Below are positions 1,974 to 22,713 of a DNA stretch of 64,000 bases, one piece after another; the stretch's first letter is position 1, and each line of letters starts with the position of its first letter. The DNA lies in contig CAYRUY010000001.1 in the NCBI GenBank assembly GCA_964427455.1, forward strand, positions 87,726 through 151,725, read 5' to 3'. Under the pieces are notes generated by a model that was not told the origin of the DNA, made no database searches, and was given only the letters and a program-made list of their open reading frames with translations. Origin of the DNA: an uncultured Candidatus Bathyarchaeia archaeon. GTDB lineage: Archaea > Thermoproteota > CALKCG01 > B24 > JAWCPE01. The translations under genes and the position numbers were made by a program.

Positions 1974-2149
1974 AGCACTGAAGCCCGTATCCATCAAACC
2001 CATGTCCGAAGGTCAGTGACGTTCGGTTTCGTTCCTCGTAGCGGGCTGGTTGCCGAGCCGAATGCCCCAAGTAGACTCCTTCCGCCGTCTGAGTTAAGCT
2101 ATATATCCGACGTTCGGAAATCTCATGGAACCGCTATTTCGTCCCCTGG

Positions 2150-2776: not shown

Positions 2777-2780
2777 AGCC

Positions 2781-3482: not shown

Positions 3483-3593
3483 CCCTCGCGAGGATTGCAC
3501 GCGTCAATGCGATGAGACTCATGCACGCCTTAGCGTCTGTGTTGCAGGCATCGCGGTATGGTTTGTTCTCCCACAAGCGACCCCGAAGCCGGG

Positions 3594-3962
3594 TCATAAA
3601 AGATATCTTCGGACCATGTCAACAGCCTTGCCAAGGCTGCCAGCGCGGTAGGCGATCAAGCGCGCCCTCAATGCAGCTCTCTTCCTTAGCCCCACGGTTC
3701 TCGGCCTCACGCTCGCAAGGTCCAGCAACAGGTAGCATTTGAGGATGTCAAGCGACCTCCGGCTCGCGGGGTCTAAGTCGTGCACGTATCGGTCATACGC
3801 GGCGAAAAGCGCCTCGGCAGCCTCCTCCTCTTCTATCTCCTCGTCAGGCCCGATCGAGCTGAGCGACTGGTAGACTAGGAGGCCCGTGTAGTCATAGCTG
3901 AGCCTTCGACGCGCCAGTCTCGCCAAGTCGCGCGCGATCTCTTGAAGCTCAGCTTTCTTCAA
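3594..3962 (-). CDS. hypothetical protein
   Basis: 122-aa ORF with an acidic EEIEEEEAAE stretch. No recognisable family. Confidence 0.3.
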   Translation of the reverse strand: MKKAELQEIARDLARLARRRLSYDYTGLLVYQSLSSIGPDEEIEEEEAAEALFAAYDRYVHDLDPASRRSLDILKCYLLLDLASVRPRTVGLRKRAALRARLIAYRAGSLGKAVDMVRRYLL

Positions 3963-4026
3963 GTCGCCGGGCCGCCCTCACAACCTTGCAGGGTGCGAAT
4001 ATAAGCTTGCAAGCATAGACGCAGGC

Positions 4027-5085
4027 CTAGCGGCGCCGAGCGAACGCGTTGAACCTTGCCAAGGCCTTGGCCTCGGTCATCGGCTTGGGGGGACTCTTGA
4101 ACCCATAAGCTGAGACCTCGATCAGAGGCCCGCCGAGGCCACGATCTAGGCCCAGCTTCACCGCTCTGATCGCGTCCAGCAGAAGGTTGACGGCGTTCGG
4201 GGCGTCTGCGCAGGTCATCTTCACGTCGATCACGACCGGGGTCCCGGCTAGGAAGCGGCCTTCGATCCAGAGGTAGCTCGTCCTCTCATTCCGCAGGAAC
4301 TCCACGTAGTCGGTCGTTCCCGCTGTCACCGGTACACTGTACGGGAGGCTTGACGTGATCGAGGCGGCCTTTATTCGACGCTTGAGAACGTTTCTGTCAC
4401 GGTCGAGAGCGTTCAGGTTCTCTGCGCCACCTCCGACATCCAACGCATAGCTCTTGTCCACGTGTACGCCTCGCCGGTCGAGCGTCTCGAAGATAGCTCG
4501 ATGAAGTATGGTGGAGCCGATCTGATCCATCAGGTCGTCCCCTGCGATCGGCAACTTGGCCTCCCTGAAGCGTTTGCCCCAAGCCCTTCTGCTAGCCACC
4601 CTGTTCGGCGTCGCGTTCACGAAGCCGCATGCAGCTTGAAGCGCGTCGCTCGCATAGAACTCTGTGGCCTTGACGGCGCCGCTCGGCGTTAGGTTGACCA
4701 CAACCTGAGCACGGCTTCGTCTCAGCTCCTCCGCCACATCGACCGCTGGCAAGGCATCGATCTCGAGGGCATCCTTGGAGAAGGCCCCGACCCCATCTAG
4801 AACAGGGCCTTTGACTACCTTGACGCCTAGGGCCTGGACCTGACATATCCGCGGCGCGTCGTTAGGTGGCGAAAGGATCGCGTCGCTCAGGTCTTTCCCA
4901 ATCTTCCTTGAGGCGATGTCGAACGCCGCCACGAACCGAATGTCAGACGGCTTGTAGCCGCCGACTTCTGGGTGGATGAGACCCGGCGATTGGCCTCCGC
5001 CTGATCTGCCGTAGAGGGCGACTGCCTGAACCAGCGCTGAGCAGCAGTTACCTACGCCAAAGAGACCGACTCTGATCTCTGCCAT
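4027..5085 (-). CDS. myo-inositol-1-phosphate synthase (archaeal-type)
   Basis: N-terminal Rossmann segment RVGLFGVGNCCSALVQAV, a conserved NxTP-like block (FVNATPN) and a length of about 350 aa fit the archaeal IPS/MIPS family. Confidence 0.7.
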   Translation of the reverse strand: MAEIRVGLFGVGNCCSALVQAVALYGRSGGGQSPGLIHPEVGGYKPSDIRFVAAFDIASRKIGKDLSDAILSPPNDAPRICQVQALGVKVVKGPVLDGVGAFSKDALEIDALPAVDVAEELRRSRAQVVVNLTPSGAVKATEFYASDALQAACGFVNATPNRVASRRAWGKRFREAKLPIAGDDLMDQIGSTILHRAIFETLDRRGVHVDKSYALDVGGGAENLNALDRDRNVLKRRIKAASITSSLPYSVPVTAGTTDYVEFLRNERTSYLWIEGRFLAGTPVVIDVKMTCADAPNAVNLLLDAIRAVKLGLDRGLGGPLIEVSAYGFKSPPKPMTEAKALARFNAFARRR

Positions 5086-5233
5086 CGCAGCACCGCTCGG
5101 TAGGCCTCCTACACCAGAGATAAGGTTTGCTCGCCCAAGGCTGGTCCGCGGGCGGGCAAGGGTTTTAGTTGGTCTTCGAGAAGACTTTGCGCCCGCTGTT
5201 CCGCTCGCGCCGCCAGCCTCTGGGGTTGACAGC

Positions 5234-5947
5234 TTGGCTGAGAAGCCGACGAGGTCTAGCGACCACGTAAGTGTCGAGTACGCTCAAGCGCATTGGTCGC
5301 TTCTAGCCGACCTGAGGGGCGTAGCTCTGGGCATGATGAAAGCGTTAAGCCTAGCGTCCATGCCTTCCATCGTTCACGGAAGCGTCGCAAGGGGGGACGT
5401 AGACGCTGGCAGCGATGTGGATGTCGTCATTCCTTTCGTCGTCTCCAGCCACAGAGTTGAGCTTGCCTTAGCCAATGCAGGTTTCAGGCCCTATTCGAAA
5501 CGAATCGTTCAAGCCACGCCCGGTCTCTCGCCTAAAGCTCAGCTATCCCTAGACTTCGAGGAGAAGCGTACGGTTACCTTCCCCCTCTTGGCGTTCAAGC
5601 CCCGGGAGCTTGAGTTCTACAGATTCGGCGGCATGCTCAGCCTCGAGGATACCGCGAACAACCTGAGGGTACCAGGCTGCACGAAGAGACTGACGATGAT
5701 CGAGCCGACGTCTAAGGGCCACGTTGAGTCGCCTGTTGAGGGAAGAGAGGCAGAGGTCGCCGCGGCTGTCGGCGTGTCGTTAGAGACCGTGCAGGAGAGG
5801 GTGAGGGTTCTGAAGCGGCGAGACGAAATAGGCCGCACGGGGGCATACCTCGACGTGACTCTTGACGAGGAGGAGACCTTTGAGGGGGCTCTGAAGCGGC
5901 TGGCTGATGCAAACCCTGTTCTCAGACGCCGCTATGTCCTAGGATAG
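5234..5947 (+). CDS. nucleotidyltransferase-domain protein
   Basis: GSVARGDVDAGSDVDVV is the minimal NTase-fold GS...D.D signature. Confidence 0.5.
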   Translation: MAEKPTRSSDHVSVEYAQAHWSLLADLRGVALGMMKALSLASMPSIVHGSVARGDVDAGSDVDVVIPFVVSSHRVELALANAGFRPYSKRIVQATPGLSPKAQLSLDFEEKRTVTFPLLAFKPRELEFYRFGGMLSLEDTANNLRVPGCTKRLTMIEPTSKGHVESPVEGREAEVAAAVGVSLETVQERVRVLKRRDEIGRTGAYLDVTLDEEETFEGALKRLADANPVLRRRYVLG

Positions 5948-6096
5948 CTGCCACCTTCCCTGAAGCCTACCCCGGCCTAGTCGCCTCCGCAACCTTCATA
6001 AGAGGTCATAGGGTTCCCTTACTGATCTCCCCGCCTGGACCGGGCAATCCTGATTCGGAGGCTGCGTGCACGGCGATCGCTCTGCCGAGACAGGTT

Positions 6097-7299
6097 GTGT
6101 TTCTCATCGCCGCGGCAGTCGTATGGGTGGCTCTCTACGCGGCTTCGAGGCGGCTGCCTTTCAAGAAGTACGGGTTGGAGATGAATCCGCTCGTTCTGAT
6201 GTTCAGGACACGGAGGTTCAATGAATGGCTAGACAGGGCTGCGAACAAGCATCCGAGGTTCTGGAGAGCCTACTCGAACGTGGCGATACCTGTGGCAGGT
6301 CTACACATGGCCTTGGCGCTCTACCTGCTGGTCTCAAACTTGGGGTACTTTCTTGAGGAGCCCCGCGGCGGAGGAGCCGTGGTGCCCTTCATACCAGGCA
6401 TCACGGTCGACCTCGAACTCGTCGTATACTGGCTGATCCCGCTTGGAATCCTGCTTGTCTGCCACGAGCTCGCCCACGGCATCATCGCCAGACGTGAAGG
6501 CATAGCCGTCAAGTCTGCGGGCGTCCTCTTTGCCTTCGTCCTGTGGGGAGCGTTTGTCGAGCCCGACGAGGAGGAGTTGAAGAAGGCACCTGCGAAGTCC
6601 AAGCTCAGGGTCCTCGCGGGAGGTGTCCAAGCCAACATAATCGTCGCTTTGCTGGCGCTCCTGTTGCTCGTCGCCGTTTTCCGAGGCGCCCAGGAGGTTA
6701 TCCCCTACACGGCAGGCATCTACTTCGGCCGAGGACTGAAGCCTATCCCACCTAGGGGAGGCGAGGGGATCGTTATCTACGGTGTCAACACAAGCGGCCC
6801 AGCCTTCGACGCTGGCCTTCGGCGCTGGGACATCGTGTATTCCGTCAATGGCACGCCGACGCATTCCGTCCTCGACCTAGACGTGTTCTTGAAAGACTTG
6901 AAGGCGGATGAAACGTTTCTGATGAAGACAAGCAGCGGCGACCTGTCGGTTCAGACAACGAGAGGACAGGAGAATGGCATCGGCGCCTCATTCTTCGTCC
7001 AACCCTATTTCCCGGTAAGGTTCTGGCCTTACGATGACGCCGAGCTCTCTTTCAGCCTCTTCGCGGTGATCGGCGGGACGCAGGCCTTGAACCTCGCTGT
7101 TGGAATCTTCAATATGCTGCCTCTGTATCCTCTTGACGGCGAGGCCTATCTGGCAACGCTGATCCGCGAACTACACAAGAGCCCTAACAAGGAGAAATAC
7201 GCGAGGATAGCTGTGAACCTGGCCGTAGCCTCGATCTTCTTCGCCAACATAGGCTTCTCGTTACTCAACTGGGGCTTCTTCCTGACTCTTCGAAGGTGA
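6097..7299 (+). CDS. site-2 protease (M50 family) with PDZ domain
   Basis: HELAHG zinc motif in a TM helix, NMLPLYPLDGEAYL (LDG motif), multi-TM, central PDZ-like segment. Confidence 0.8.
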   Translation: MFLIAAAVVWVALYAASRRLPFKKYGLEMNPLVLMFRTRRFNEWLDRAANKHPRFWRAYSNVAIPVAGLHMALALYLLVSNLGYFLEEPRGGGAVVPFIPGITVDLELVVYWLIPLGILLVCHELAHGIIARREGIAVKSAGVLFAFVLWGAFVEPDEEELKKAPAKSKLRVLAGGVQANIIVALLALLLLVAVFRGAQEVIPYTAGIYFGRGLKPIPPRGGEGIVIYGVNTSGPAFDAGLRRWDIVYSVNGTPTHSVLDLDVFLKDLKADETFLMKTSSGDLSVQTTRGQENGIGASFFVQPYFPVRFWPYDDAELSFSLFAVIGGTQALNLAVGIFNMLPLYPLDGEAYLATLIRELHKSPNKEKYARIAVNLAVASIFFANIGFSLLNWGFFLTLRR

Positions 7300-8309
7300 C
7301 TCGGTCAGACTGGAGAAGCGGTACCGTAAGGGCTGTGTACCACCGGGATGAAAAGGACTGTGTAGGAGTTCGGTCGCGCCTGAGATGCGGGAAATGCGGC
7401 TTGGAAGCGGTCTTTCGAAGGGTCTACTCAGGGGAGAGCCTGTGCAGAGGCCATTTCCTCAGCTCTGTAGAGAGGCGTGTCTACGCGACGATGAAGAGGT
7501 ACCGTATGTTGGCGCCGACCGATTCCGTGGCCTTAGCCGTCTCAGGCGGGAAGGACAGCACCTCTCTGTTACACATACTCGCTAAGATCGAGAAGAGGTT
7601 CCCAAAGGCGAGGCTCATAGCGATAACCGTCGATGAAGGGATAAAGGGTTACCGGGATGAAGCCGTCAGGATCGCAGGTGAGAACTGTGACAAGCTAGGC
7701 GTTGAGCATAGGCTCGTGTCTTTCGTTGACCTATACGGCTTTCCGCTAGACAGCATCGTCGAGAAGGCAGAAGCGGCCAGCTCGAAGCTAACCCCGTGCT
7801 CCTACTGTGGAGTGCTGAGGAGGAAGGCGTTGAACCGTGGGGCTGTTGCACTTGGGGCGACGAAGCTCGCTACGGCGCATAACTTAGACGACATCGTGCA
7901 GACGGTAATCTTGAACCTCTTTCACGGCGACCTCTGGCGGCTCTCGCGAATAGAGCCGTCCACTAGAAGCCCTGAGCAAGGCTTCGTTCCGAGGATGAAG
8001 CCGCTATACGACACTCCTGAGAATGAGATCGCGCTTTACGCGTACCTACGAGGGATCGAGTTCCAGGCAGCGCCTTGTCCCTACGCTGGTTCATCGCTGA
8101 GAACAGAGATGAGAGCGATGGTCAACCGGATGGAGGCCGAGCATCCCGGGATAAGGTTTACGATGTTGAGGGCCTTCGAGAAGGTTAGGCCCGCTCTCTC
8201 GGAGGCTCAGAGAAGCTCCCAGCTTAACCCGTGCAAGAGCTGTGACGAACCCGCTGTCGGCGAGTTCTGCAAATCCTGCCAGATGCTCAAGGATATAGGC
8301 CTCCGCTAA
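7296..8309 (+). CDS. tRNA 2-thiolation PP-loop ATPase (TtuA/NcsA/Ctu1 family)
   Basis: SGGKDS PP-loop. N-terminal CxxC...CxxH and C-terminal CxxC...CxxC zinc/Fe-S knuckles are typical of TtuA/Ncs6. Confidence 0.75.
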   Translation: MTRSDWRSGTVRAVYHRDEKDCVGVRSRLRCGKCGLEAVFRRVYSGESLCRGHFLSSVERRVYATMKRYRMLAPTDSVALAVSGGKDSTSLLHILAKIEKRFPKARLIAITVDEGIKGYRDEAVRIAGENCDKLGVEHRLVSFVDLYGFPLDSIVEKAEAASSKLTPCSYCGVLRRKALNRGAVALGATKLATAHNLDDIVQTVILNLFHGDLWRLSRIEPSTRSPEQGFVPRMKPLYDTPENEIALYAYLRGIEFQAAPCPYAGSSLRTEMRAMVNRMEAEHPGIRFTMLRAFEKVRPALSEAQRSSQLNPCKSCDEPAVGEFCKSCQMLKDIGLR

Positions 8310-8477
8310 AGGGGCATCACGACAACGCTGCTGACCCAACTGGAGGTTTTTCCGATCATGGATTTATCGGTCGTCTCGGTCGCCGTATTAGCATTCACGT
8401 CATCCTACAGCTAGGATGTATAGTCACGGTCAGCGAATAAGTCTTATAGGAAGACTCAGTGCTCTTGGCTGCTGGAT

Positions 8478-9206
8478 ATGGGACTGTCTCTAGCAGATAT
8501 CGACAAGGTGTCGGCTGTAACATTCGACTTTGGAGGCACCCTCGCACGCTATGGACGTGAAGCTATTCTCAAGAGGCTTCTTGAGGAGCAAGGGTTCAGT
8601 CCGTCGACTGAAGCCATAAGCGAGGCCTACGAGGTAGTCGACCTCTGGTGGGATGAGAACTATGCCGGTAGGGTGCCAGAGGAGCGCTGGAACCAACGAG
8701 TGATACACGAGCTTGACTTGGTGCTCCTTACAGAGTTAGGGATAAGGGAGCGTGCTGAAGGATTAGCTCGATGGATCAGTAACAAGTGGTCTGAAGCCGA
8801 GCCTGATCAGCCCTTTGAGGTATTCCCGGACACCCTTCCAGCCCTCAGTTTCCTAAAGTCGAGAGGATACTCAATGGCGGTCATCTCCAATACACCTTCA
8901 TTGGAGAGGCTCAAAAGAGTAGTAGATGGTCTATCGGTATCTCAGTTCTTTAGGTCTCTAATAGCCTCCGGCACGGTCGGCTTCTCCAAACCTGATGAAA
9001 GGATCTTTAGGCTTGCCGCGGACGCTTTAGCTAAGCCACCGCGCGAGATTCTGCATATAGGTGACAGCTACGAAGGAGACGTATTGGGAGCCACTAGGGC
9101 TGGATTCAAAGCCATCCTCCTAGATAGGGCTAACAAGTCTAGGAAGGTGAATGTGCAGTTTCCGGTGATAGACTCCCTCGCAAAACTGGAAGAGATGCTG
9201 AGATAA
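8478..9206 (+). CDS. HAD-superfamily hydrolase
   Basis: FDFGGTL (motif I), SNTPS (motif II), GDSYEGDVLGA (motif IV). Confidence 0.7.
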   Translation: MGLSLADIDKVSAVTFDFGGTLARYGREAILKRLLEEQGFSPSTEAISEAYEVVDLWWDENYAGRVPEERWNQRVIHELDLVLLTELGIRERAEGLARWISNKWSEAEPDQPFEVFPDTLPALSFLKSRGYSMAVISNTPSLERLKRVVDGLSVSQFFRSLIASGTVGFSKPDERIFRLAADALAKPPREILHIGDSYEGDVLGATRAGFKAILLDRANKSRKVNVQFPVIDSLAKLEEMLR

Positions 9207-9355
9207 ATCCGACGTGAGCGTCAAAGCGCCGCAAGCCCTCTTATACGACCGGCGCTCTGGGGGAAAATCTGATATAGTTTTGGCCCAGTGGAGCCCACGG
9301 TGGGCTTCTTCTGGATCACCGTGAGAGGTTCCTTAAGACCTTCCGTTTCGAGGAT

Positions 9356-10399
9356 GTGGACAGGGTCCCGGACTATGAGTTCGGCTATTGGACGGAGACG
9401 ATTGACAGGTGGCATACGGAAGACCTTCCCTTGGACCGGCGTGACATCCGAGACTTGGAGCTCTACTTCGATCTCGAGGGGTTTGACATCCTTGAGCAGC
9501 TGCCCGTCAGGATGGGGCTCTGGCCTACGCTGCCGGGCAGGATCATCGAGCAGACCGCTGATAGGCTGATTGTCGACGACGGAATGGGCGGAATCTACGA
9601 GCAGAGGAGCAGCCACTCAACGGTGCCGCACTACCTCAGGTATCCTCTGAGGAGCCCGGATGACTGGGAGAAGTTGAGGCCCTTCTTCGACCCTGAGACG
9701 CCGGGCAGGTTCCCGCTGAACTGGGACGAGGTCGTCGAGGCATGCAAGGAGCGCGACTACCCGTTAGGGATCAGCATCGGGAGCCTCTACGGCTGGCTTC
9801 GCAACTGGATGGGAACAGCCGCCATCTCCATTGCCCTCTACAGGAACCCGGAGTGGGTAGACGAGATGATGCAGACCTTGACCGACCTGTGGCTTAACGT
9901 CGCCGAGAAGGCGCTGCGCGACGTGAAGGTCGACTTCGCCACCTGGTGGGAGGACATGTGCTACAACCGGGGCCCGTTGATCTCCGTACGACACTTCGAG
10001 GAGTTCATGGTCCCGAAGTATAAGCAGGTCACGGACTTTCTGAAGGAGCACGGCGTCAGGGTAAACGTCCTCGACTGTGATGGGCGGATTAACGAGCTCG
10101 TCCCAGGATGGCTCAGGGGAGGGATCAACTGCATGTTCCCGCTTGAGGCCGCTCACACAGACGCCTACGCGCTGAGGGAACGCTTCGGAAAGGATGTCCT
10201 CCTCCTAGGGGCTGTCAACAAGCGCCAGTTGATGAAGGGCCCCGACGCGATCGACGCTGAGCTCAAGCGGCTGACACCGCTCCTCGAGGAAGGAGGCTAC
10301 ATACCGACCGTAGACCACAGGGTCCCACCAGAGGTTTCCCTAGAGATCTACCGGTATTATCTGAAGAGAAAGAGGGAGTGGATCGGCAGAGCATCCTAA
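9356..10399 (+). CDS. uroporphyrinogen-decarboxylase (URO-D) superfamily protein, MtaA/CmuA-like
   Basis: The in-frame sequence upstream of the called GTG (ERFLKTFRFEDVDRVPDYEF) matches the URO-D family N-terminus. The C-terminal GGYIPTVDHRVPPEVSLE also fits. There is no ATG/GTG/TTG in frame between the upstream stop (9275) and 9356, so the start is unresolved. Confidence 0.5.
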   Translation: MDRVPDYEFGYWTETIDRWHTEDLPLDRRDIRDLELYFDLEGFDILEQLPVRMGLWPTLPGRIIEQTADRLIVDDGMGGIYEQRSSHSTVPHYLRYPLRSPDDWEKLRPFFDPETPGRFPLNWDEVVEACKERDYPLGISIGSLYGWLRNWMGTAAISIALYRNPEWVDEMMQTLTDLWLNVAEKALRDVKVDFATWWEDMCYNRGPLISVRHFEEFMVPKYKQVTDFLKEHGVRVNVLDCDGRINELVPGWLRGGINCMFPLEAAHTDAYALRERFGKDVLLLGAVNKRQLMKGPDAIDAELKRLTPLLEEGGYIPTVDHRVPPEVSLEIYRYYLKRKREWIGRAS

Positions 10400-10921
10400 T
10401 CCGCCTTCTCCCTCCGGCTTGGCGCGGTCGCCAGCCCTCGGCCTCGCCGCCGCCCTAGCTTTTCCCAGCGCCGACAAGGTTTTTCTCACGCCCTACGGTG
10501 CGTTCATAGCGCCTTTCTCCATGCTTTAGGGTGGTTTCATGCCACCAAAGGAGCGCGAGATGGGCCCTGATTCAGCCGAAACCTAGCGCGGAAGGGCTCT
10601 GATTGAAGGCTCTTCTCTCAGTTGGGCATGCGTCCATTCAGCCCCCGGCCCAGAGGGTTCAAACCCTATGCTTCAGCCTCAGAGCCTTCGTCGCAGAGCT
10701 ATACCTGACCGCCAATTGTTCGATAGACCATGTCCACGAGACGCTACGGAGGGCTGCCGATCCACAGGATCTAGTCTACCTCTCGCGAGGCTCGGGCTCG
10801 GCCCGGACACTATCAGAGGGATGTCGGAAACCCATCACGCGCCGCTCAGGTCTAGGGGCCTTGAACGGACCTGTCTCCGAGCGCCTTCCGAAAAAGGATG
10901 TCAGACTGGCCGTTCCAAGAG

Positions 10922-11074
10922 CGGGCCCGGCGGGACTTTCCGCTGAAGCAGCTCAAGCCTGAGCTTTTGAACCCGCGACCCCCGGCTCTCCTCGTCCGGG
11001 CGCCTAGAGGGCCGATGCGCTCCACGTGACCCCCCGGGCTTTCGCAGGGGCTGTCCGTGCTGCGCCACGAGCCC
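10922..11074 (-). tRNA. candidate intron-containing tRNA (isotype unresolved)
   Basis: Minus-strand 5' GGGCUCGUGGCGCAGC (acceptor + D-stem) and 3' GGUC-GCGGG-UUCAAA[30-nt hairpin]U-CCCGC-CGGGCCC-G (variable, T-stem, T-loop, T-stem, acceptor, discriminator). The acceptor pairs 7/7 with one G.U. D-stem GCGC/GCGC appears once a 34-nt insert (11025-11058) is skipped. The anticodon arm UCGGC/GCCGG carries a 17-nt insert. No clean U33 could be derived by hand. Confidence 0.4.
10936..10965 (-). other. putative non-canonical tRNA intron in the T-loop (position 59/60)
   Basis: 30 nt (AGCUCAGGCUUGAGCUGCUUCAGCGGAAAG) splits an otherwise canonical GCGGG-UUCAAAU-CCCGC T-arm. It contains two internal hairpins. 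Confidence 0.4.
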
Positions 11075-11240
11075 ACTTGAGTATGTCCGTGTCTTCCTCG
11101 AGGGCTCTCGCCTTCGGGCCCGCGACACTCTGACGACGTTGGAGTACTTAAGCCTGCCCTCTGTTAGACTCGTTAGTCCATAAGCCGACCCATGCCTAGG
11201 CATCGTCTGCTCGTCAAACGAGGTAAGAATACCAGAGTAC
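11068..11240. repeat. conserved intergenic element, copy R1 (paralogous to 18995-19165)
   Basis: Blocks cttcgggcccgcgac, tacttaagcctg and catgcctaggcatcgtctgctcgt are shared with copy R2 in the same order and orientation. The minus-strand end runs into the tRNA 5' end. Confidence 0.55.
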
Positions 11241-11378
11241 GTCTCCCTCAGAACCTCATAGGGCCTATTTGAGGGAGGGAATGGACCGGGCGGGATTCCT
11301 CCCCGAACAGGTTTGAGTCGCAGGGCAATCCTGCCCTGATAGACCTATCACGTTGGACCACAGCATCTGACCGAAGGC

Positions 11379-11388
11379 CTTAAAAAAC
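11379..11388 (+). promoter_or_regulatory. putative TATA/BRE box for the BMP transporter operon
   Basis: ttaaaaaa lies about 33-40 nt upstream of the ATG at 11420. Inverted repeats occur further upstream (11244-11276, 11321-11338). Confidence 0.3.
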
Positions 11389-11419
11389 AGGGAGGATGAG
11401 ATGAGAGGCGGTTGATTCC

Positions 11420-12580
11420 ATGGCGAGGACAACATCGGCAATGGTTGCGTTCTTGCTCATAGGTGTGCTAGTGGGCGTCGCTGTAGGGTGGGTTGCCAAA
11501 CCGATTCCGCCTCCTGGCCCAGACTATATTCAGAGGACTGAGTACGACAAGGTGAGATCCGACTACGACAAGCTGAGGGCCGATTACGACCATACCTTAG
11601 CCCAGCTCGCGAAGCTGAAGAAGCCGGTGAAGATCGGTCTCGTAATGGCCACGGGCGGCCTAGGAGACAAGTCGTTCAACGACATCTCGTACGCGGGGGT
11701 CGTGCAGGCGAAGGAAGAGCTTGGCATAGAGTTCAGCTACGTGGAGCCCAAGGCCATAGCCGAGTACGAGGGCTTCCAGAGAGACTTCGCTAAGACCGGC
11801 GAGTACGCGCTGATCATCTGCATTGGCTTCGACCAAGCGGATGCTCTTACGAAAGTCGCCGGGGAGTACCCTAACCAGAGATTCGCAATCGTCGACATGG
11901 TCGTTGACAAGCCTAACGTGGCTTCCCTGCTCTTCAAAGCGAATGAGGGCTCCTTCCTTGTCGGCGTCATCAGCGCTATGACGACGAAGACGGGAAAGGT
12001 CGGCTTCGTAGGAGGCATGGACATTCCGCTCATCAGGGACTTCTTCATGGGATATGAAGCCGGCGCGAAGTGGGCGAGGAGCGATGTGACTGTGCTCTCA
12101 CCCGTCTTTGTAGGCGAATGGGCGAATCCAACGAAGGGGAAGGAGCTCGCTGTCTCACTAGTAGAGCTTGGAGCAGACGCCATCTACGTCGCGGCGGGAA
12201 AGAGCGGCCTAGGTGCGCTGGAGGCCGCCAATGAGAGGAACATCACGGCTTTCGGCGTTGACGCATGTCAAGACTACCTGAACCCGGCGATTCTAGCGAG
12301 CATGACGAAAAGGGTTGACCGCGCCGTCTTCGAGATGATCGTGGCCGCAACGTTTGATGAGGTCTATGGCATCTGGCATGCCTTCTTCAAGGGCGGATTC
12401 ATCGAGGGAGGCGTCAAAGAGGGATGGACAGGCTGCTGCAGGCTACCACAGGAGCAAGCTTTCTGGGAGGCCAAGTTCAACTTCACGCATACGGCGCTTC
12501 CAGCAAACGTCGTCACGAAGCTCAATGAGGCAAGAGCCGGAATCATTTCAGGAGAGATACAGGTACCACGACCATACTGA
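11420..12580 (+). CDS. BMP-family (PnrA/TmpC-like) ABC transporter substrate-binding protein, membrane-anchored
   Basis: GLVMATGGLGDKSFNDISYAGV and FVGGMDIPLIRDFFMGYEAG match PF02608. N-terminal TM anchor. Confidence 0.85.
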   Translation: MARTTSAMVAFLLIGVLVGVAVGWVAKPIPPPGPDYIQRTEYDKVRSDYDKLRADYDHTLAQLAKLKKPVKIGLVMATGGLGDKSFNDISYAGVVQAKEELGIEFSYVEPKAIAEYEGFQRDFAKTGEYALIICIGFDQADALTKVAGEYPNQRFAIVDMVVDKPNVASLLFKANEGSFLVGVISAMTTKTGKVGFVGGMDIPLIRDFFMGYEAGAKWARSDVTVLSPVFVGEWANPTKGKELAVSLVELGADAIYVAAGKSGLGALEAANERNITAFGVDACQDYLNPAILASMTKRVDRAVFEMIVAATFDEVYGIWHAFFKGGFIEGGVKEGWTGCCRLPQEQAFWEAKFNFTHTALPANVVTKLNEARAGIISGEIQVPRPY

Positions 12581-12589
12581 TGGGCCTAG

Positions 12590-14146
12590 GTGAGCTTTAA
12601 ATCCAATATCACCCCCCCTTTTTCCACCATGCCTCTGGCAGTGGAAATGAGGCAGATCACCAAGAGCTTCCCCGGCGTACTCGCAAACGACAGCATAGAT
12701 ATCGCCGTTGAAAAGGGAGAGATACACAGCCTACTCGGCGAGAACGGCGCCGGGAAAACGGTTCTGATGAGCATTCTCTACGGGCTCTACAGGCCCGACA
12801 GTGGCCAGATCCTCGTAAACGGGGAAGAAGCCGATGTAGACAGCCCAGCTAAAGCGATAAGGCTGGGCATAGGCATGGTTCACCAGCATTTCATGCTCAT
12901 ACCCAGCTTCACCGTCGCAGAGAACATAGTCTTAGGCAGAGAACTCACAAAGAACAAGATCCTCCTAGACAAGAAGAAGACACTAGGATACGCAGGGAAG
13001 TTCTGTGACCAGTACAAGATGAAAGTCGACTTGAGCGCGCCGGTCCACACCCTTCCCGTTGGCGTACAACAAAGGGTGGAGATTCTGAAGGCTCTGTACA
13101 GAGGAGCCAACATACTCATCCTCGACGAGCCGACATCCGTTCTCACACCCCAGGAAGTAGACGAACTCTTCAAAGCCATCAGAGCCCTCAAAGAACAGGG
13201 AAAGACGGTCATATTCATCTCGCACAAGCTGAAAGAGGTCATGGAGATCAGCGACAGAGTCACCGTCCTGAGAAGAGGAAGGGTAGTCGGCACAGTCAGG
13301 AAAGAGGAAAGCGATGCAGCCGAACTTGCCGAAATGATGGTAGGAAGACAGGTCTCCCTCACAACCGACAAGAAGAACGCTCAACTGGGGGACATTGTAC
13401 TCAGAGTGGAAGACGTAAAGGCCATGAATGACAGGAAGCTGCCTGCACTCAAAGGAGTAACCTTCGACATCCATGCACATGAGATACTCGGCGTAGCCGG
13501 AGTTGAAGGAAACGGACAGACCGAGCTTGTCGAGGTCCTAACAGGACTAAGGAAGGCCGTAGAAGGGAAGATCCTGCTGGAAGGACAGGAGATAACAGGC
13601 GAGCCTCCTAGCAAGAGGATCGAACTCGGGATCTCCCATGTTCCAGAGGACAGGCAGAGAACCGGTCTAATCCTAGACTTCTCGTTGAAGGAGAACCTGA
13701 TCCTCGGGGACCACAGGAACGAACCCTTCGCAAAGAACGGGATCGTCCTCGACCTCGAGGAGATCTCAAGCCATGCGGAGAAGTTGGTCGACGACTACTC
13801 GATAAGGACGCCAAGCACGGATGCTCTCACCAGACACCTGTCTGGGGGAACACAGCAGAGAGTCATCCTCGCAAGAGAGTTCAACAGAAGACCGAAACTC
13901 GTGGTTGCATCGCAGCCGACCAGAGGCCTAGACATCGGAGCCACGGAATACGTGCGGAATAAACTCGTGGAGATGAGAGACAGCGGCTGCGCAGTCCTTC
14001 TCATCTCAGCCGACCTCGACGAGGTAAGGGCATTAAGCGACAGAATCGCAGTCATCTACGAAGGCAGGATCACCATCATAGATAACTCAAAGACCGTAAG
14101 CGAGCGCGAACTCGGCCTCCTGATGGCTGGTGGTAAGACTGGGTGA
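12590..14146 (+). CDS. ABC transporter ATP-binding protein, duplicated ATPase domains (nucleoside/sugar type)
   Basis: Two Walker A/signature/Walker B sets (GENGAGKT...LSGGTQQR). The true start is probably at MPLAVEM (about 12629). Confidence 0.85.
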   Translation: MSFKSNITPPFSTMPLAVEMRQITKSFPGVLANDSIDIAVEKGEIHSLLGENGAGKTVLMSILYGLYRPDSGQILVNGEEADVDSPAKAIRLGIGMVHQHFMLIPSFTVAENIVLGRELTKNKILLDKKKTLGYAGKFCDQYKMKVDLSAPVHTLPVGVQQRVEILKALYRGANILILDEPTSVLTPQEVDELFKAIRALKEQGKTVIFISHKLKEVMEISDRVTVLRRGRVVGTVRKEESDAAELAEMMVGRQVSLTTDKKNAQLGDIVLRVEDVKAMNDRKLPALKGVTFDIHAHEILGVAGVEGNGQTELVEVLTGLRKAVEGKILLEGQEITGEPPSKRIELGISHVPEDRQRTGLILDFSLKENLILGDHRNEPFAKNGIVLDLEEISSHAEKLVDDYSIRTPSTDALTRHLSGGTQQRVILAREFNRRPKLVVASQPTRGLDIGATEYVRNKLVEMRDSGCAVLLISADLDEVRALSDRIAVIYEGRITIIDNSKTVSERELGLLMAGGKTG

Positions 14147-15215
14147 GAAGGCTCATGAGTTAGACCTAAGAGCAGGGAAACAGGTTCTGCAAGGTTTGCT
14201 CGTAGGGATACTGCCCGAGCTAGTAGCCATCATGGTTGCGTTCGTTGTTGGGGCTGTACTGCTTTACGTGACAGGATACCACCCAGTAAGCGCCTACGCG
14301 GCGATGGTCCAAGGCGCCTTCGGCGACATCTTCGGGATCGGCCAAACCCTCACGCAAGCAACACCGATCATCTTCACCGGTCTCTCCTTCCTACTTGCTT
14401 CCAGAGGCGGGCTCTTCAACATAGGGGCTGAAGGCCAACTCCTGGTCGGGGGTTTCTCAGCTGCACTCGTCGGGATATCCTTTCCGGGACTACCATCCGT
14501 AATCCATCTGCCCATAGCCATACTCGCTGCAGCTGCTGCAGGAGGTCTGTGGGGGTTCATCCCGGCGGCCCTCAAGGCGAAGCTCGGAGCTCACGAAGTC
14601 ATAACAACCATGATGCTAAGCTACGTGGCCTCGTATCTCACGAGCTACATGGCAAACTACCCGTACAAGGCGCCGGGATGGGTGGCGCAGACAGTTCCGG
14701 TCGCTCTCTCGGCACAGTTGCCCAGCATCCTTCCTCCAACGCAGCTATCAGCCTCACTCTTCCTCGCACTGCTTATGGCCGGTCTGACCTACTACATGTT
14801 CGACAAGACCACGCTGGGCTACGAGATTAGGGCTGTGGGCCTCAACCCGCGGGCGGCAGAAAGCGGCGGAATAAGCGTAACAAGAAACATCCTTCTAGCG
14901 TTAGTCCTAAGCGGCGCCCTAGCAGGCATCGGCGGAGCAGGGGAGGTCCTCGGCGTCCACAAACGCTACATAGATGGCTTCTCCCCAGGATACGGGTGGG
15001 ACGGAATCGCAGTAGCCCTCGTCGGCAGGCTTAACCCGGTAGGTGTCATCTTCGCCGCCGTCCTGTTCGGAGCCCTCAGAAGCGGAGGCATGGTGATGAC
15101 AAGAGTCGTCGGGGTTCCCCTGGACATAGTGATGATGCTCCAAGCCCTCGTGATCCTCTTCGTCGCAGCACCCATGCTCATTCAAGGCCTTCTCAGGAGG
15201 CGTCAGCATGGTTGA
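14130..15215 (+). CDS. ABC transporter permease (BMP-family system)
   Basis: Multi-TM, follows the ATPase with a 17-nt overlap. Confidence 0.8.
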   Translation: MVRLGEKAHELDLRAGKQVLQGLLVGILPELVAIMVAFVVGAVLLYVTGYHPVSAYAAMVQGAFGDIFGIGQTLTQATPIIFTGLSFLLASRGGLFNIGAEGQLLVGGFSAALVGISFPGLPSVIHLPIAILAAAAAGGLWGFIPAALKAKLGAHEVITTMMLSYVASYLTSYMANYPYKAPGWVAQTVPVALSAQLPSILPPTQLSASLFLALLMAGLTYYMFDKTTLGYEIRAVGLNPRAAESGGISVTRNILLALVLSGALAGIGGAGEVLGVHKRYIDGFSPGYGWDGIAVALVGRLNPVGVIFAAVLFGALRSGGMVMTRVVGVPLDIVMMLQALVILFVAAPMLIQGLLRRRQHG

Positions 15216-16431
15216 ACTCATTGACGTGATCAATATAGGACTCTTCGCAGCAGCGCTTCGAATGGCGACCCCGATAGCGCTAGCATCACTTGGAGGAATC
15301 TTCTCAGAGAGAGCAGGCATAACGAATATCGGCCTCGAAGGCATGATGCTGATGGGAGCTTTCTCCGGCGTAGCCATCAGCTTCTTCACGGGAGACCCCT
15401 GGCTCGGCGTCATAGCAGCAGTGCTTGTCGGGGCCCTGCTCGGCCTCCTCCACGCCGTACTCGTGGTCAGATTCGTCGGAAACCAGATCGTGAGTGGGGT
15501 CGGCATCAACATCCTCGCCATGGGCTTTACTGCATTCATGTCGCAGGTCTTCTGGGGCTCCAGAGGGGCCTCCGAGAGCGTCCAAGGCCTAAGGGAAGTA
15601 TCTATCCCACTCCTCAGAGACATCCCGCTGATCGGACCGGTAATCGGAACGCACACGCCCTTCGTCTACCTGATGCTGATCATAACCATCCTGTCACACG
15701 TCTTGCTCTTCAGGACACCCTTTGGGCTCAGGATAAGAGCTGTAGGCGAGCACCCTGCAGCAGCCGACTCAGCCGGCGTAAACGTCTTCAGGACCAAGTA
15801 CCTCTGCGTAGTGCTGAGCGGCATGCTCGCAGGCCTGGGCGGGGCATTCCTCTCCCTAGGCCACCTGAACCTGTTCGCTTGGGGGATGACGGGCGGCCGC
15901 GGTTTCATAGCCATGGCAGCCATGATCTTCGGCAAGTGGATGCCCTTCGGAGCCTTCTGGGCCAGCCTCCTCTTCGGCTTCTCAGACGCGCTGCAGATGA
16001 GGCTCCAGTCCCTAGGGCTCATGCCACCCCAGATCATACTGGCAATCCCCTACGTGCTCACAATAGCAGTGCTAGCTGGCGCCGTTGGTAGGGCGAATCC
16101 ACCGAGCGACTACAAACCCTACGTCAAGGAACGCCCGCGTCGTGCTAGACCTCGGCTAGTGCGGTTACCGCGGAGACTGCTGTCCTCTGTTAAGCGACTG
16201 CGGAGTACGACGCATATGGCTCCAGCTTTGGCGCCGCCTACCATTGCCAGCCTAAGGAGGCAACTCGCTTCTATCTCCTCTTCTCCAGCATCTCCTTCAC
16301 TACTCTCACACCCTCCTCCGACAACTCCCTTGCCTTCTCCGGGGAAGGCGAATCCACGTACACCCGCACTACAGGCTCAGTTCCCGAGAGCCGAATCAGC
16401 AACCACGAACCATCATCATAAACGTACTTAA
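15208..16431 (+). CDS. ABC transporter permease (BMP-family system), C-terminal tail questionable
   Basis: The permease core ends near VGRANPPSDYKPYVKE (about 16130). The ORF continues another 100 low-complexity Pro/Arg/Ser-rich codons into the convergent PGM gene. Confidence 0.7.
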   Translation: MVELIDVINIGLFAAALRMATPIALASLGGIFSERAGITNIGLEGMMLMGAFSGVAISFFTGDPWLGVIAAVLVGALLGLLHAVLVVRFVGNQIVSGVGINILAMGFTAFMSQVFWGSRGASESVQGLREVSIPLLRDIPLIGPVIGTHTPFVYLMLIITILSHVLLFRTPFGLRIRAVGEHPAAADSAGVNVFRTKYLCVVLSGMLAGLGGAFLSLGHLNLFAWGMTGGRGFIAMAAMIFGKWMPFGAFWASLLFGFSDALQMRLQSLGLMPPQIILAIPYVLTIAVLAGAVGRANPPSDYKPYVKERPRRARPRLVRLPRRLLSSVKRLRSTTHMAPALAPPTIASLRRQLASISSSPASPSLLSHPPPTTPLPSPGKANPRTPALQAQFPRAESATTNHHHKRT

Positions 16432-17626
16432 GACCATCAATCTCCACCAACCTTGTGTTCGGAGGCCTGAAACCTCCCTTCACCTTCTCCACGAGCGATG
16501 CCACCTTCTTAGGTTGGCCTCTCAGATTCCTTTTGACCTGGACATGCCTTGGAAACCCGGAGGCTATATCTGAAAGAACGCGTCGGGCCCTTGCTAGTAT
16601 GACGGCCATGAAGGCCGTCGCAATTATCCCGTCAGCCCAAGGCACTTTCGGGGGAAAGAAGTACTTGCCGGTCTCCTCGTAACCGAACCTCGCGTTATGG
16701 CGCTTTATCGCAAGCGAGATCTCCGGAGGCCCAATCCTACACTCCTCCACCCTACCCTTCCACACAGTCCTCATCAAGCCGGACGAGTTGACCGGCATCA
16801 CGCAGACGCCCGGGCCTGAATCGTACAGGTACCTTGCGAATATGGCCGCCGCGAGATCCTCAGAAAGCGGGGTACCCGTCTCGTCTACGAAGAGCACCCT
16901 ATCGCAATCAGCGTCATAGGCTGCGCCGAAATTAACCTTCCTCCACCGCACTAGCGCCCTCAGATCCTCAACGTTGTCTGCTCTGGGCTCCATAAGCCTC
17001 GGTGCGACGCCCGTTCGTTCGTCGTTTATGGCCACAGCGTCACACCCTAGGTCCATCAGCAGTCTTGAGATGACGCCAGCGCCAGTTCCGCCCGCAGGGT
17101 CCAAGGCTACGGACACGCCTTTGTCTAGAAGGCTGTCACCAACCATGATTCCTCGGACGAATCTTGTGTATGACGGCATCCAGGTTGGGTCTAATTCGGC
17201 CAGAGCGCCTCCCACATCAGTTCCAGGCGGCTCGATCTGGCCAGCTAGTTCCTCTATCTCCGCGGTCTTTTCACGTGACAGTATAGTGCCATCAGAATCT
17301 ACTGGGATGAGTCCGATGCGGTCGTAGGATAGGTGAGAGCCAGTGGCCATCAGCCCGCCTCGGAGCCCCCGCTCCGCGATCTGCTGAGAGAGTATCGGTG
17401 ATGGTATCACACCGAAGTTCTGAACCTGTACGTCTTCGGAGATCATCGCTGAGGCGCAGACGCCTGCCAGTTCCTCCGCCCCTGGCCTAGTATCATAACC
17501 AAGAGCCAACCTAGAGCCTTTACCGAAGAACCGTGCTAGGGCCTCCGAAGCCACATGGCAGAGCTGCGGCGTAACCTCTAGGTAGGTTAACCCCCTGATG
17601 CCTGCCGTGCCGAAACGCACGTTCAT
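16271..17626 (-). CDS. phosphoglucomutase/phosphomannomutase-family protein, likely phosphopentomutase
   Basis: MNVRFGTAGIRG start, GYDTRPG, active-site region ATGSHLSYD (Ser-His), four-domain length of 451 aa. It sits between the nucleoside ABC transporter and deoC, as archaeal phosphopentomutases do. Confidence 0.7.
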   Translation of the reverse strand: MNVRFGTAGIRGLTYLEVTPQLCHVASEALARFFGKGSRLALGYDTRPGAEELAGVCASAMISEDVQVQNFGVIPSPILSQQIAERGLRGGLMATGSHLSYDRIGLIPVDSDGTILSREKTAEIEELAGQIEPPGTDVGGALAELDPTWMPSYTRFVRGIMVGDSLLDKGVSVALDPAGGTGAGVISRLLMDLGCDAVAINDERTGVAPRLMEPRADNVEDLRALVRWRKVNFGAAYDADCDRVLFVDETGTPLSEDLAAAIFARYLYDSGPGVCVMPVNSSGLMRTVWKGRVEECRIGPPEISLAIKRHNARFGYEETGKYFFPPKVPWADGIIATAFMAVILARARRVLSDIASGFPRHVQVKRNLRGQPKKVASLVEKVKGGFRPPNTRLVEIDGLKYVYDDGSWLLIRLSGTEPVVRVYVDSPSPEKARELSEEGVRVVKEMLEKRR

Positions 17627-17638
17627 TCTTTCTTTATC

Positions 17639-18304
17639 CTATCCTAGGCGTGCGCCCTCAACTATCTGGATGCTCGCACTCGCGCCTATTCGGTTGGCGC
17701 CCGCCCTGATCAACTCCATGGCCGTCGCGTAATCCCTTATTCCACCAGCTGCCTTCACCCCAAGCCGTTCGCCTACCGTCTCCCGCATCAGCCTAACCGC
17801 CTGAACCGTCGCTCCCGACGGCCCGAAGCCTGTTGAGGTCTTCACAAAACCCGCGCCCGCCCTCTCCGCAACCTTGCAGGCCTCCACAATCCCGCTATCG
17901 TCAAGGTAGCATACCTCGATTATCACCTTTACAATCCTACCGTCTGCAGCCCGTACAACCCCCCTAATGTCCCTCTCAACGTAGCCTATGTCGGCATCAA
18001 GCAGCTTCCCTATGTTCATCACCATGTCTAACTCGTCCACTCCCTCTTCCACAGCAGTCTCTGTCTCCACGGCCTTCGACGCAGTACCTGTAGCCCCAAA
18101 CGGAAACCCTACCACAGAGCATGCCTTGACATCAGAACCAGAAAGCCTGGAGACACATCTTGCCACCCTTGAAGGGTTGACGCACACGGAGTAAAAGCCA
18201 TACTCCAAAGCCTCATCACAAAGCTTGTCCACTTGGCTGACTGTCGCATTCGGCTTCAGCAAGGTATGATCGATCATCTTCGCAAGGTCTTTAGGATCCA
18301 TCAA
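17639..18304 (-). CDS. deoC: deoxyribose-phosphate aldolase
   Basis: DeoC TIM-barrel over the full length. HTLLKP, SVCVNP and Schiff-base lysine context FVKTSTGF. Confidence 0.85.
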   Translation of the reverse strand: MMDPKDLAKMIDHTLLKPNATVSQVDKLCDEALEYGFYSVCVNPSRVARCVSRLSGSDVKACSVVGFPFGATGTASKAVETETAVEEGVDELDMVMNIGKLLDADIGYVERDIRGVVRAADGRIVKVIIEVCYLDDSGIVEACKVAERAGAGFVKTSTGFGPSGATVQAVRLMRETVGERLGVKAAGGIRDYATAMELIRAGANRIGASASIQIVEGARLG

Positions 18305-18518
18305 TTATCCCGCTTCTCAAGCTAAGTCGGCCTCTAGGCCATATATCAGCTTAGCGTCACAACCGAAGAGAAGCTCCCCGGCTTCTGGTAGCTTAAGGGC
18401 TTGCTAACACGCCCCCGGCATCTGGGAGCATCTGGAATGGGAGCGCCCGCTCTTCCTCGAAGTGGTCGACGGCGCCATGCTGAAGGTGGGTCAGACACGC
18501 TGGAGCTTCTAACTCTTT

Positions 18519-18968
18519 TTGCGCTGGCCTTGTCATAACCCTGGTGAGATACGGGATATGGCGTTGCAGGAAGAGGAAGCCCGGTTCAGTGGCAAATCGA
18601 TCCAGGAAAAACTGTTGGTATATACAGCCCAGTCTGTCAGGAACTTTGCCTATAGGATGCTCATATGCAAACATGTGTTGGATATGGGTTATGTCCCTTT
18701 AAATCCGTTCAATCTCTGGGGGGGGCATTACCTGTACGAGTTAGTGGATCGCGATGTTGTTAGGAATGCGAATAACAATCTCATAAGAAGGGTAGACGAA
18801 GTGTGGGTCTTCTGGGACATTTCCGACGGGGTTCTACCTGAGACAAATCTGGCAAAGGAGTCAGGTAAACCTGTTAGATACTTCAACATTGACGATCTCC
18901 CTAGATCCATTGTGGGAATCGAAGAGGACCAAGTTAGATACGAAGAGGGTGTTCATTGGCAAAGATGA
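18519..18968 (+). CDS. small protein, nucleoside 2-deoxyribosyltransferase-like fold (DUF4406/DNPH1-like?), low-GC island
   Basis: NP...VDEVWVFWDISDGVLPETNLAKESGKPVRYF follows the NDT-superfamily pattern. The region is visibly AT-richer than its flanks. Family call is tentative. Confidence 0.35.
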   Translation: MRWPCHNPGEIRDMALQEEEARFSGKSIQEKLLVYTAQSVRNFAYRMLICKHVLDMGYVPLNPFNLWGGHYLYELVDRDVVRNANNNLIRRVDEVWVFWDISDGVLPETNLAKESGKPVRYFNIDDLPRSIVGIEEDQVRYEEGVHWQR

Positions 18969-18994
18969 GCAGCCGTAAATAGTGGTGGACAACT

Positions 18995-19165
18995 GAGCCC
19001 ACCCGAGCTTGTTCGTATCTCCGCCTAGGGTTCTGTCTTCGGGCCCGCGACCATGTGAAAGTGCTCGCATACTTAAGCCTGTCCTCAACTGGCCTAGCTA
19101 GTTCATAACCTGACGCATGCCTGGGCATCGTCTGCTCGTTTGATAGTACGAACCTCTCAGGCTCC
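18995..19165. repeat. conserved intergenic element, copy R2 (paralogous to 11068-11240)
   Basis: Same conserved blocks as R1. The palindromic hairpin atgcc-tg-ggcat has a covarying loop relative to R1 (atgcc-ta-ggcat). No intact tRNA follows. Confidence 0.55.
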
Positions 19166-19259
19166 TAGGCTGCATGGTGATCCCTCACAAGGCTGTACGC
19201 GTCCAGGACCCGAGTGCTGAAGTTCCGCATCTAGAGCTTGATCTTCTGCGATTCCTACC

Positions 19260-20276: not shown

Positions 20277-20373
20277 TAGTCAGCGTCCATATAAGGCTTC
20301 GCGGGCTTGGTGGAGAAACAGGGCGCGAATGACGGGTGCGAGGTCCATATGTTAACTCTCTCTGCACAATCGG

Positions 20374-22601: not shown

Positions 22602-22713
22602 CTTCACAGAGACAGCCGCGCAAGGGTAGCCGGTGCCCTAGGTTTGGTTCAAGATGAAAAAGGGGGTTCGCCGCAGGGAGCCCCTTAATAGCCTAGTGGG
22701 GCTTCGCGGCTGC

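Follow-up and report, generated by a model that had tools for sequence, protein, structure and literature searches.

A repeated intergenic element in a Bathyarchaeia genome is very probably the front end of a tRNA-Arg(UCU) gene hidden by four introns, together with an orphan copy of that front end

An intergenic element occurs twice, in the same orientation, in a 64-kilobase (kb) stretch of DNA from an uncultured Candidatus Bathyarchaeia archaeon (contig CAYRUY010000001.1; the whole stretch is hereafter called the window), and we wanted to know what this element is. Homologues of the Bmp protein encoded in the window also place it in Bathyarchaeia. An earlier description based on the letters alone, referred to here as the sequence-only reading, had proposed a structured RNA, a protein-binding site or a small non-autonomous element, with a candidate tRNA following the first copy. 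Our analyses make it very probable that the first copy (R1) is the front end of a gene for tRNA-Arg(UCU) that is located on the minus strand (11121 to 10922) and contains four introns, and that the second copy (R2) is an orphan copy of the same module. R1 would thus contain the promoter, the 5' leader, the exon 1 of 7 nucleotides (nt) and intron 1 of a tRNA gene that, judged from its predicted product, is apparently functional. Hence, the involvement of a tRNA and the idea of a functional RNA-gene or protein-binding sequence stand, but those of a free-standing structured RNA and of a small mobile element do not.

Alignment and a sensitive self-BLAST (blastn) of the 64-kb window, in which R1 and R2 match with E = 5e-21, confirmed that the two copies are present at the places where they had been reported. 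Their outer limits are 11068-11216 for R1 and 18995-19141 for R2, the offset between them is 7925 nt, and they share 73-77% identity, depending on the choice of ends, with a single 1-nt indel. The similarity ends around positions 11216 and 19141, about 25 nt short of the right limits of 11240 and 19165 that had been assigned previously. No third copy was found by the self-BLAST. The ordered blocks mentioned in the sequence-only reading were recovered: three of them (CTTCGGGCCCGCGAC, TACTTAAGCCTG and CATGCCTRGGCATCGTCTGCTCGT) are exact in both copies, with none expected by chance in shuffled sequence, a 24-mer differs at a single position (23/24), and the palindrome ATGCC-NN-GGCAT is present in both R1 and R2. 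R1 is situated in a gene-free gap of ~1 kb upstream of an operon encoding a Bmp/PnrA-type ABC transporter, and R2 in between the convergent DUF7768 and asparaginase II genes. The region of low guanine-cytosine (GC) content that was said to follow R2 is in fact located at 18500-19000 (43-48% GC), over the DUF7768 gene, and precedes R2 on the plus strand.

A tRNA following R1 on the plus strand, beyond position 11240, was detected neither by ARAGORN nor by Rfam. ARAGORN did not identify any tRNA in the window, nor on the unspliced locus when run with its intron option, and screening of the whole window against Rfam gave 0 hits at gathering thresholds and, with E values of up to 10, only chance-level hits (E>1) on both repeat regions. 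The tRNA body is located instead on the minus strand, at 10922-11067, to the left of R1, and the gene overlaps the left half of R1, so that the element reads on the minus strand and not on the plus strand. Its 7-nt first exon and its four introns hide this gene from ARAGORN and Rfam.

The gene becomes apparent by comparison with a 56-kb contig of a Bathyarchaeia relative (L022; ~80-84% DNA identity), which was reached via homologues of the URO-D-like gene of the window (9356-10399). The gene order on this contig is URO-D, SelA-like, NucS, YjbQ and a class I aminoacyl-tRNA synthetase (Pfam tRNA-synt_1), and its minus strand carries the marks of a tRNA: the 5' acceptor strand GGGCCCG, the T arm GCGGGTTCAAATCCCGC and the 3' acceptor strand CGGGCCC. 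When the window gene was spliced by hand by taking out four introns, a product of 76 nt was obtained that is identical at all 76 positions to the product of the L022 gene, from which three introns were taken out. ARAGORN recognized both spliced products as tRNA-Arg(tct) with a full cloverleaf, including a 7-bp acceptor stem, U8, A14, G18G19, a T loop with the sequence TTCAAAT, and G73. Whereas the flanking exons are identical, the removed segments of the window and L022 genes differ in number (4 versus 3), in sequence and in length (47 versus 41, 31 versus 30, and 17 versus 17 nt).

Read in the direction of the minus strand, the predicted gene is organized as follows. The leader GTCGC (11122-11126), near which transcription is predicted to start, falls within an exact 15-mer that R1 has in common with R2, and its CGC can pair with G10-C11-G12 to form the outer helix of the intron-1 splice motif. 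Exon 1, GGGCCCG (11115-11121), corresponds to tRNA positions 1-7; as the 5' acceptor strand, it has its complement in CGGGCCC (10929-10923), the 3' acceptor strand. It is followed by intron 1 (11068-11114; 47 nt), an intron of the R type inserted at 7/8 that ends with GTGGGCTCG; it is unrelated in sequence to intron 1 of L022 save for the last GCTCG. The splice motif of intron 1 has a fully paired central helix (4/4; GGCC/GGCU) with 3-nt bulges, CG|A and CG|U. Exon 2 (11052-11067) covers positions 8-21, including the 5' part of the D arm, and is identical to that of L022. Intron 2 (11021-11051; 31 nt) is located in the D loop at 21/22, and differs from the 30-nt intron of L022 between exons that are identical. 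Exon 3 (11005-11020) contributes the 3' strand of the D stem, the 5' strand of the anticodon stem and the loop up to position 37, with anticodon UCU. Intron 3 (10988-11004; 17 nt) occupies the canonical 37/38 position and has a complete bulge-helix-bulge motif, in which the central helix (4/4) and the outer helix (5/5) are fully paired. Exon 4 (10966-10987) runs from position 38 to position 59 in the T loop, where intron 4 (10936-10965; 30 nt) is inserted at 59/60, and exon 5 (10922-10935) from position 60 to the discriminator G73. The splice motif of intron 4 has a good geometry, with central, outer and inner helices paired at 3/4, 5/5 and 4/5, respectively, and removal of this intron restores GCGGGTTCAAATCCCGC exactly as in L022. 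Intron 4 is present in the window and not in the L022 gene (at ~8386-8395), which is otherwise identical; on this comparison, it is a putative case of recent intron gain or loss. An oligo-T stretch, CCTTTTTCGG, read from the sequence at 10888-10897 on the minus strand, is likely the transcription terminator of the gene, a role that we infer.

Upstream of the leader, R1 contains a box resembling a B recognition element and TATA box (BRE/TATA), CAGGCTTAAGTA (11145-11156, minus strand), which is identical in R2; the C of its CTTAAG is positioned 31 nt upstream of tRNA position 1. TATA-like boxes are found 30-31 nt before tRNA position 1 in R1, in R2, in L022 and in a third front end described below, with the GGCTTTAAGA boxes of the last two at this same distance. 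The 12-mer CAGGCTTAAGTA is found once more 36 nt upstream of the ATG of an open reading frame (ORF) at 56468-56986. For Thermofilum pendens, Chan et al. 2011 (PMC3218864) reported that tRNA promoters precede the mature 5' end by 30-49 nt. Together, the spacing, the boxes of L022 and the third front end, the copy in front of the ORF and the T. pendens precedent argue that CAGGCTTAAGTA is the promoter box of the tRNA gene. According to established archaeal tRNA biology, the RNA polymerase would start ~25-30 nt downstream of this box and transcription would end at the oligo-T stretch near 10893; RNase P would remove the leader, the splicing endonuclease would cut out the four introns at bulge-helix-bulge motifs, and a ligase would join the exons.

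This organization offers an explanation for the block-wise conservation. The blocks pointed out in the sequence-only reading would be the parts that such a module needs, all of them on the minus strand: TACTTAAGCCTG is the putative promoter box, CTTCGGGCCCGCGAC comprises the leader, exon 1 and the first three bases of the intron (the 5' splice site and one strand of the central helix), and GAGCCCAC, at the left end of the repeat, closes intron 1 on its 3' side and pairs with exon 1. The spacers would have drifted. Between R1 and R2, the segment with leader, exon 1 and splice site is identical at 15/15 positions and that with the promoter box at 13/14, and the upstream part at 44/58. The 18-nt spacer from the TATA box to the predicted transcription start (11127-11144 in R1, minus strand) is identical at only 7/18 positions, its length being kept and its sequence not. 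This is the pattern that would be expected for a working module of promoter and exon under selection. Further upstream, separated from CAGGCTTAAGTA by ~34 nt of moderately conserved sequence, R1 contains the 24-mer with the palindrome, ACGAGCAGACGATGCCYAGGCATG (11191-11214, minus strand), ~70-95 nt upstream of tRNA position 1. This 24-mer was not found upstream of the tRNA promoter in L022.

Why, then, is the front end present in more than one copy? Positions 8386-8491 of L022 match positions 10966-11072 of the window, and positions 8479-9438 match 31449-32409. L022 is continuous where the window is separated and, therefore, the 20.4 kb between 11072 and 31448 constitute an insertion inside the minus-strand tRNA gene. 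A 12-nt sequence, CTGCGCCACGAG, which spans the border between intron 1 (4 nt) and exon 2 (8 nt), flanks the insertion on either side (11060-11071 and 31449-31460) and occurs in single copy in L022 (8479-8490). At the right end, the original 5' end of the gene has become an orphan (31449-31536, minus strand) that is collinear with L022 8479-8566. It consists of a TATA-like box, GGCTTTAAGAAAGC (31536-31523), exon 1 (31504-31498), a 41-nt intron 1 of the original, L022 type (31497-31457) and 8 nt from the start of exon 2 (31456-31449). A direct alignment search did not identify this region near 31.5 kb as a third copy of the repeat, because its intron and spacer are different, and it was recognized only via L022.

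Exon 1 together with a promoter is thus present three times (at 11121, 19046 and 31504), and the intact gene is located at the left end of the insertion. The R2 module (18995-19141, minus strand), as aligned with R1, is composed of the 24-mer (19139-19116), the TATA box (19081-19070), the leader (19051-19047), the copy of exon 1 (19046-19040) and an intron-1-like segment (19039-18995). It is not followed by a tRNA body: after GGGCTC, the sequence continues with the antisense strand of the DUF7768 gene and not with exon 2, TGGCGCAGC. The sequence-only reading had also mentioned a duplication remnant of a tRNA upstream region, and this comes close to what is present.

On the plus strand, the order of the elements is tRNA body, R1, block A, R2, block B, original front end and NucS. 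Block A (11217-18994), which is missing at this locus in L022, carries the Bmp/PnrA-type ABC transporter operon and genes for a phosphomutase, a DeoC aldolase and DUF7768 (nucleoside deoxyribosyltransferase-like), as named from Pfam and PHROG hits. Block B (19142-31448) carries genes for an asparaginase II, a branched-chain-type amino-acid ABC transporter, an isoaspartyl peptidase, a C69 peptidase, a 468-aa protein and a Zn-dependent dehydrogenase. The latter gene (30557-31474) abuts the junction with the orphan and is cut short there: of the 340 positions of the profile it matches only ~247, and its reading frame continues into the tRNA fragment. The tRNA locus thus appears as a hotspot at which this lineage gathered genes for the uptake and breakdown of nucleosides and of amino acids and peptides.

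The succession of tRNA body, R1, block, R2, block and original front end is the arrangement that repeated insertion at one site would produce. We infer that the most likely history is one of serial insertion, in which DNA blocks bringing their own tRNA front end entered the gene one after the other, and with each insertion a new front end would have taken over from the resident one, which was displaced. The first to be inserted would have been block B with R2, followed by block A with R1.

The population to which the window belongs provides a further view of this locus. A contig of a near-identical strain (L019) matches window 18393-19088 with its bases 1-693 (98% identity) and window 31658-39441 with its bases 779-8562 (99.7%). 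These matches flank a gap and, therefore, this strain lacks window positions 19089-31657; we refer to this form as the short allele. Besides block B, the short allele lacks 19089-19141 and 31449-31657. Its left breakpoint falls inside R2, just after TACTTAAGCCTGTCCTCAA and 8 nt upstream of the R2 box, and the 24-mer is not found in it. The junction is exactly the same in L024, a Logan assembly obtained independently, and four other assemblies (L029-L032) have the long form as in the window. As both alleles are found in independent assemblies, both are real and co-exist. In the short allele, the last 20 codons of NucS are replaced by a divergent but homologous tail, and the R2 promoter is located 36 nt from the NucS stop codon. 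This suggests that the two alleles differ through an exchange by homologous recombination between strains, in either direction, and not through a simple deletion. Several independent metagenome contigs from this population stop in or near the tRNA/R region (L020 at window position 10823, L021 at 10535 and L008 at 19075), and L019 starts at 18393, which fits with strain-level structural variation at the locus.

A precedent for these rearrangements is tRNA-Thr(GGU) of Caldiarchaeum subterraneum, where inserted DNA displaced the 5' fragment of the gene and supplied a new 5' part and an intron (Sugahara et al. 2012, PMC3293823). In both cases, DNA inserted in a tRNA gene provides a replacement 5' part, an intron results from the sequence at the join, the former 5' fragment is orphaned nearby, and differing arrangements co-exist in one population. 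Unlike the Caldiarchaeum insertion, which is 1.9 kb long, is present in six copies in the genome and encodes a putative recombinase, the blocks described here are 7.9 and 12.3 kb long, carry metabolic cargo and were not found to encode a recombinase; moreover, the exchanged piece includes a promoter and a 7-nt exon, and there are three front ends instead of two. Ample documentation exists for Thermoproteota of tRNA genes with multiple introns, and of partial tRNA fragments in the vicinity of tRNA loci that underwent rearrangement (PMC3218864, PMC4090602, PMC4033280). As in the multi-intron genes of Thermoproteales and their relatives, several short introns are located here at positions other than 37/38, their bulge-helix-bulge motifs are strict or relaxed, and the gene is invisible to standard finders (PMC4090602, PMC4033280). 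The gene described here differs from those in its Bathyarchaeia host, in having 4 versus 3 introns between relatives with identical exons, and in a predicted C33. The locus is a further case of a known type of event, in which a tRNA gene is disrupted by inserted DNA and orphan tRNA fragments are left behind. With three alternative front ends and their respective promoters inside 20 kb, it offers a natural snapshot of front-end replacement in Bathyarchaeia. The wholesale swap of intron 1, the T-loop intron present in one lineage and the two alleles fit the model in which inserted DNA creates tRNA introns and scattered fragments. It also has a practical consequence for annotation, as parts of a hidden tRNA gene could pass for a novel non-coding RNA.

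The locus can also be compared with archaeal tRNA-targeted integrative elements, such as those with SSV-type and pNOB8-type integrases (PMC8371274), and with tandem genomic islands at tRNA genes. There, too, one junction restores the intact gene, whereas the other retains a partial tRNA copy, and in tandem islands the repeated use of one site leads to arrays separated by partial tRNA copies. The interruption of a tRNA gene whose counterpart in L022 is unbroken, the direct repeats at the junctions and the re-formed gene are all present at our locus; an encoded integrase or recombinase was not found among the ORFs of 11.4-31.5 kb. Unlike in integrative elements, neither an integrase nor its partitioned halves were found, the identity of the repeats is 75% and not 100%, duplication concerns the 5' end with its promoter, and one junction truncates a cargo gene.

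Several observations weigh against the reading of R1 and R2 as tRNA front ends left by insertion. With ~75% identity, R1 and R2 are too diverged to be fresh duplicates of an attachment (att) site. The junctions are at different nucleotides, R2 ending after GGGCTC and the original orphan keeping 9 nt more. Pfam, NCBIfam and PHROG scans did not reveal any integrase, transposase or other mobility gene in the 11.2-31.5 kb region, which contains only transport and metabolic families and two ORFs without hits. Given this absence and the dehydrogenase gene truncated at the right junction, site-specific integration is only one possibility, and decay or homologous exchange between strains are equally likely ones. 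As for the predicted tRNA, U at position 33 is near-universal, but the mature product would have C33 in an anticodon loop CCUCUAA (window 11005-11010, minus strand); C33 is also present in L022 and is hence conserved between both genomes. The splice motifs of the introns at 7/8, of which the outer and inner helices are weak and the central helix is 4/4 paired, and at 21/22 are relaxed; some archaeal endonucleases are reported to accept relaxed motifs (PMC5829648). Furthermore, with only two copies, the block-wise conservation is weakly above random scatter: when the 40 differences were shuffled along the alignment, p values of 0.19, 0.024 and 0.044 were obtained for the longest match run, the top three runs and the sum of squared run lengths, respectively. 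Finally, the palindrome of the 24-mer is not explained by a tRNA module; it could be a site for a regulator or for a recombination arm.

Another history is conceivable for the same module, in which R2 arose by duplication within the genome, or R1 and R2 arrived together in one composite insertion. The identity of the module would be unchanged. Neither block is marked by mobility genes as an independent element, and sequence without constraint, such as the introns, is already highly diverged between the window and L022, so that R1 and R2 could have reached their 25% divergence at this locus. However, the arrangement of the locus matches repeated insertion at one site, and judging from the short allele, the presence of block B does not depend on that of block A. 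We regard this history as rather unlikely, though it deserves to be kept in mind next to serial insertion.

A more far-reaching proposal, which we consider improbable, is that the module is a portable cassette for the capture of tRNA genes without an integrase, that its stranded copies are transcribed and yield 5' fragments or are trans-spliced, and that the 24-mer is a protein-binding site driving recombination or regulation. If both the cassette and the activity of the stranded copies were real, the locus would be a live intermediate between an intron-containing and a split tRNA gene.

A related and still less probable option is that R2, and perhaps also the original orphan, is the active 5' piece of a split tRNA with its own promoter, to be joined in trans. 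R2 has indeed retained the promoter box with its spacing, the leader and exon 1, along with the block at the 5' splice site (identities of 15/15 and 13/14), and pairing in trans with the last bases of intron 1 could give rise to the same central helix. Split tRNAs with halves that carry promoters are known from archaea, and in the split tRNA genes of Nanoarchaeum, Caldivirga, Aeropyrum and Staphylothermus (PMC3218864), a lone 5' piece with its own promoter is likewise followed by intron-like sequence. Unlike in those cases, a complete gene in cis with its own exon 1 is present 8 kb away (10922-11121), neither a tRNA body without 5' exon nor a separate, matching 3' piece was found in the window, and what lies downstream of R2 is a protein gene in antisense orientation. 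In addition, the short allele removes the upstream region of R2 without any sign of compensation. R2 thus looks like a leftover rather than a half that is needed.

The possibility that the element is a free-standing structured RNA or a cis-regulatory element of the plus strand, for instance a leader of the Bmp operon, is highly improbable. R1 is indeed located upstream of the bmp operon and its blocks are conserved, but no Rfam family matches at E values of up to 10, and R2 faces the 3' end of a convergent gene on the plus strand. Consensus folds of the two sequences gave 0 compensatory pairs on the plus strand and 1 on the minus strand, so that the check for covariation suggested earlier did not provide convincing covariation. 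As a bmp leader, R1 was rejected: the closest relative with the operon (L001; 87% DNA identity) matches the window only from 11368, with the bmp promoter CCTTAAAAAA, and both nearest relatives (L001 and L002) keep only this promoter, without R.

The chances of a small mobile element, similar to a miniature inverted-repeat transposable element (MITE), are equally slim. There are two dispersed copies of ~150 bp with a weak terminal complementarity (GAGC...GCTC), but this extends over only 4-6 nt and does not amount to proper terminal inverted repeats, target duplications are lacking, and two copies are all that 64 kb contain. A scan for the block pattern in 185,579 reference genomes (one per GTDB species) gave no true hit, the R blocks were not found in viral contigs, phage records or plasmid records either, and of the 11 loci obtained from JGI metagenomes only L019 is related, as a strain variant of R2. 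Moreover, the content of the element is fully accounted for as parts of a tRNA gene. In the same scans, five Acinetobacter matches to the 24-mer were taken as chance matches.

That the repeat encodes a small minus-strand protein can practically be dismissed: the ORFs at 10901-11203 and 18934-19128 both start with MPRH at the same position of the repeat, sharing the ATG and 16 of the first 30 codons, but the mismatches over codon positions 1, 2 and 3 (6/10/8) show no excess at the third, identity is as high or higher in other frames, the frame is broken beyond codon 31 by a 1-nt indel, and Pfam gave no hits.

Some further observations were made on the genes in and around the insertion. For the asparaginase II gene (19260-20276, minus strand), the homologues in a collection of 5.8 billion proteins reach at most 46% identity, its own 100% match excepted, and the best matches with a name are bacterial (Chloroflexota, Acidobacteriota and others), which suggests that this gene was acquired from bacteria. 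A search for its synteny in other genomes found no close homologues, and only a short contig of the same population that ends inside R2. The 468-aa ORF (28402-29808, minus strand) has hydrophobic segments at its N- and C-termini and no hit in Pfam, NCBIfam or PHROGs. The tail of NucS (window 31597-31657) was compared with those of L019 (718-778), L024 and L022 (8641-8700): the last ~20 codons differ sharply between the co-existing alleles (KKLSGYLDLLF versus KDLSDYTEATPN), whose NucS genes are otherwise 99.7% identical. The end motif of the window form presumably resembles a PCNA-binding tail.

The SelA-like aminotransferase gene, which in L022 is located between URO-D and the tRNA gene (7130-8372), is missing in the window. 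Its place (10400-10921) is taken by ~520 nt of gene-free sequence that holds a second family of non-coding repeats. Members of ~125 nt are present at 10498-10621 and 61756-61881 of the window, at L022 5719-5818, in opposite orientation, and at L023 4213-4312. The window copies share 77% identity with each other and 81% with the relative's copy, and the loci occupied by the repeat are not the same in the two genomes. It has no Rfam match, and contains a GGTGG-TTTCATG-CCACC hairpin and two CTGATT motifs. This repeat may represent a small RNA that has escaped annotation, or a further fragment related to a tRNA.

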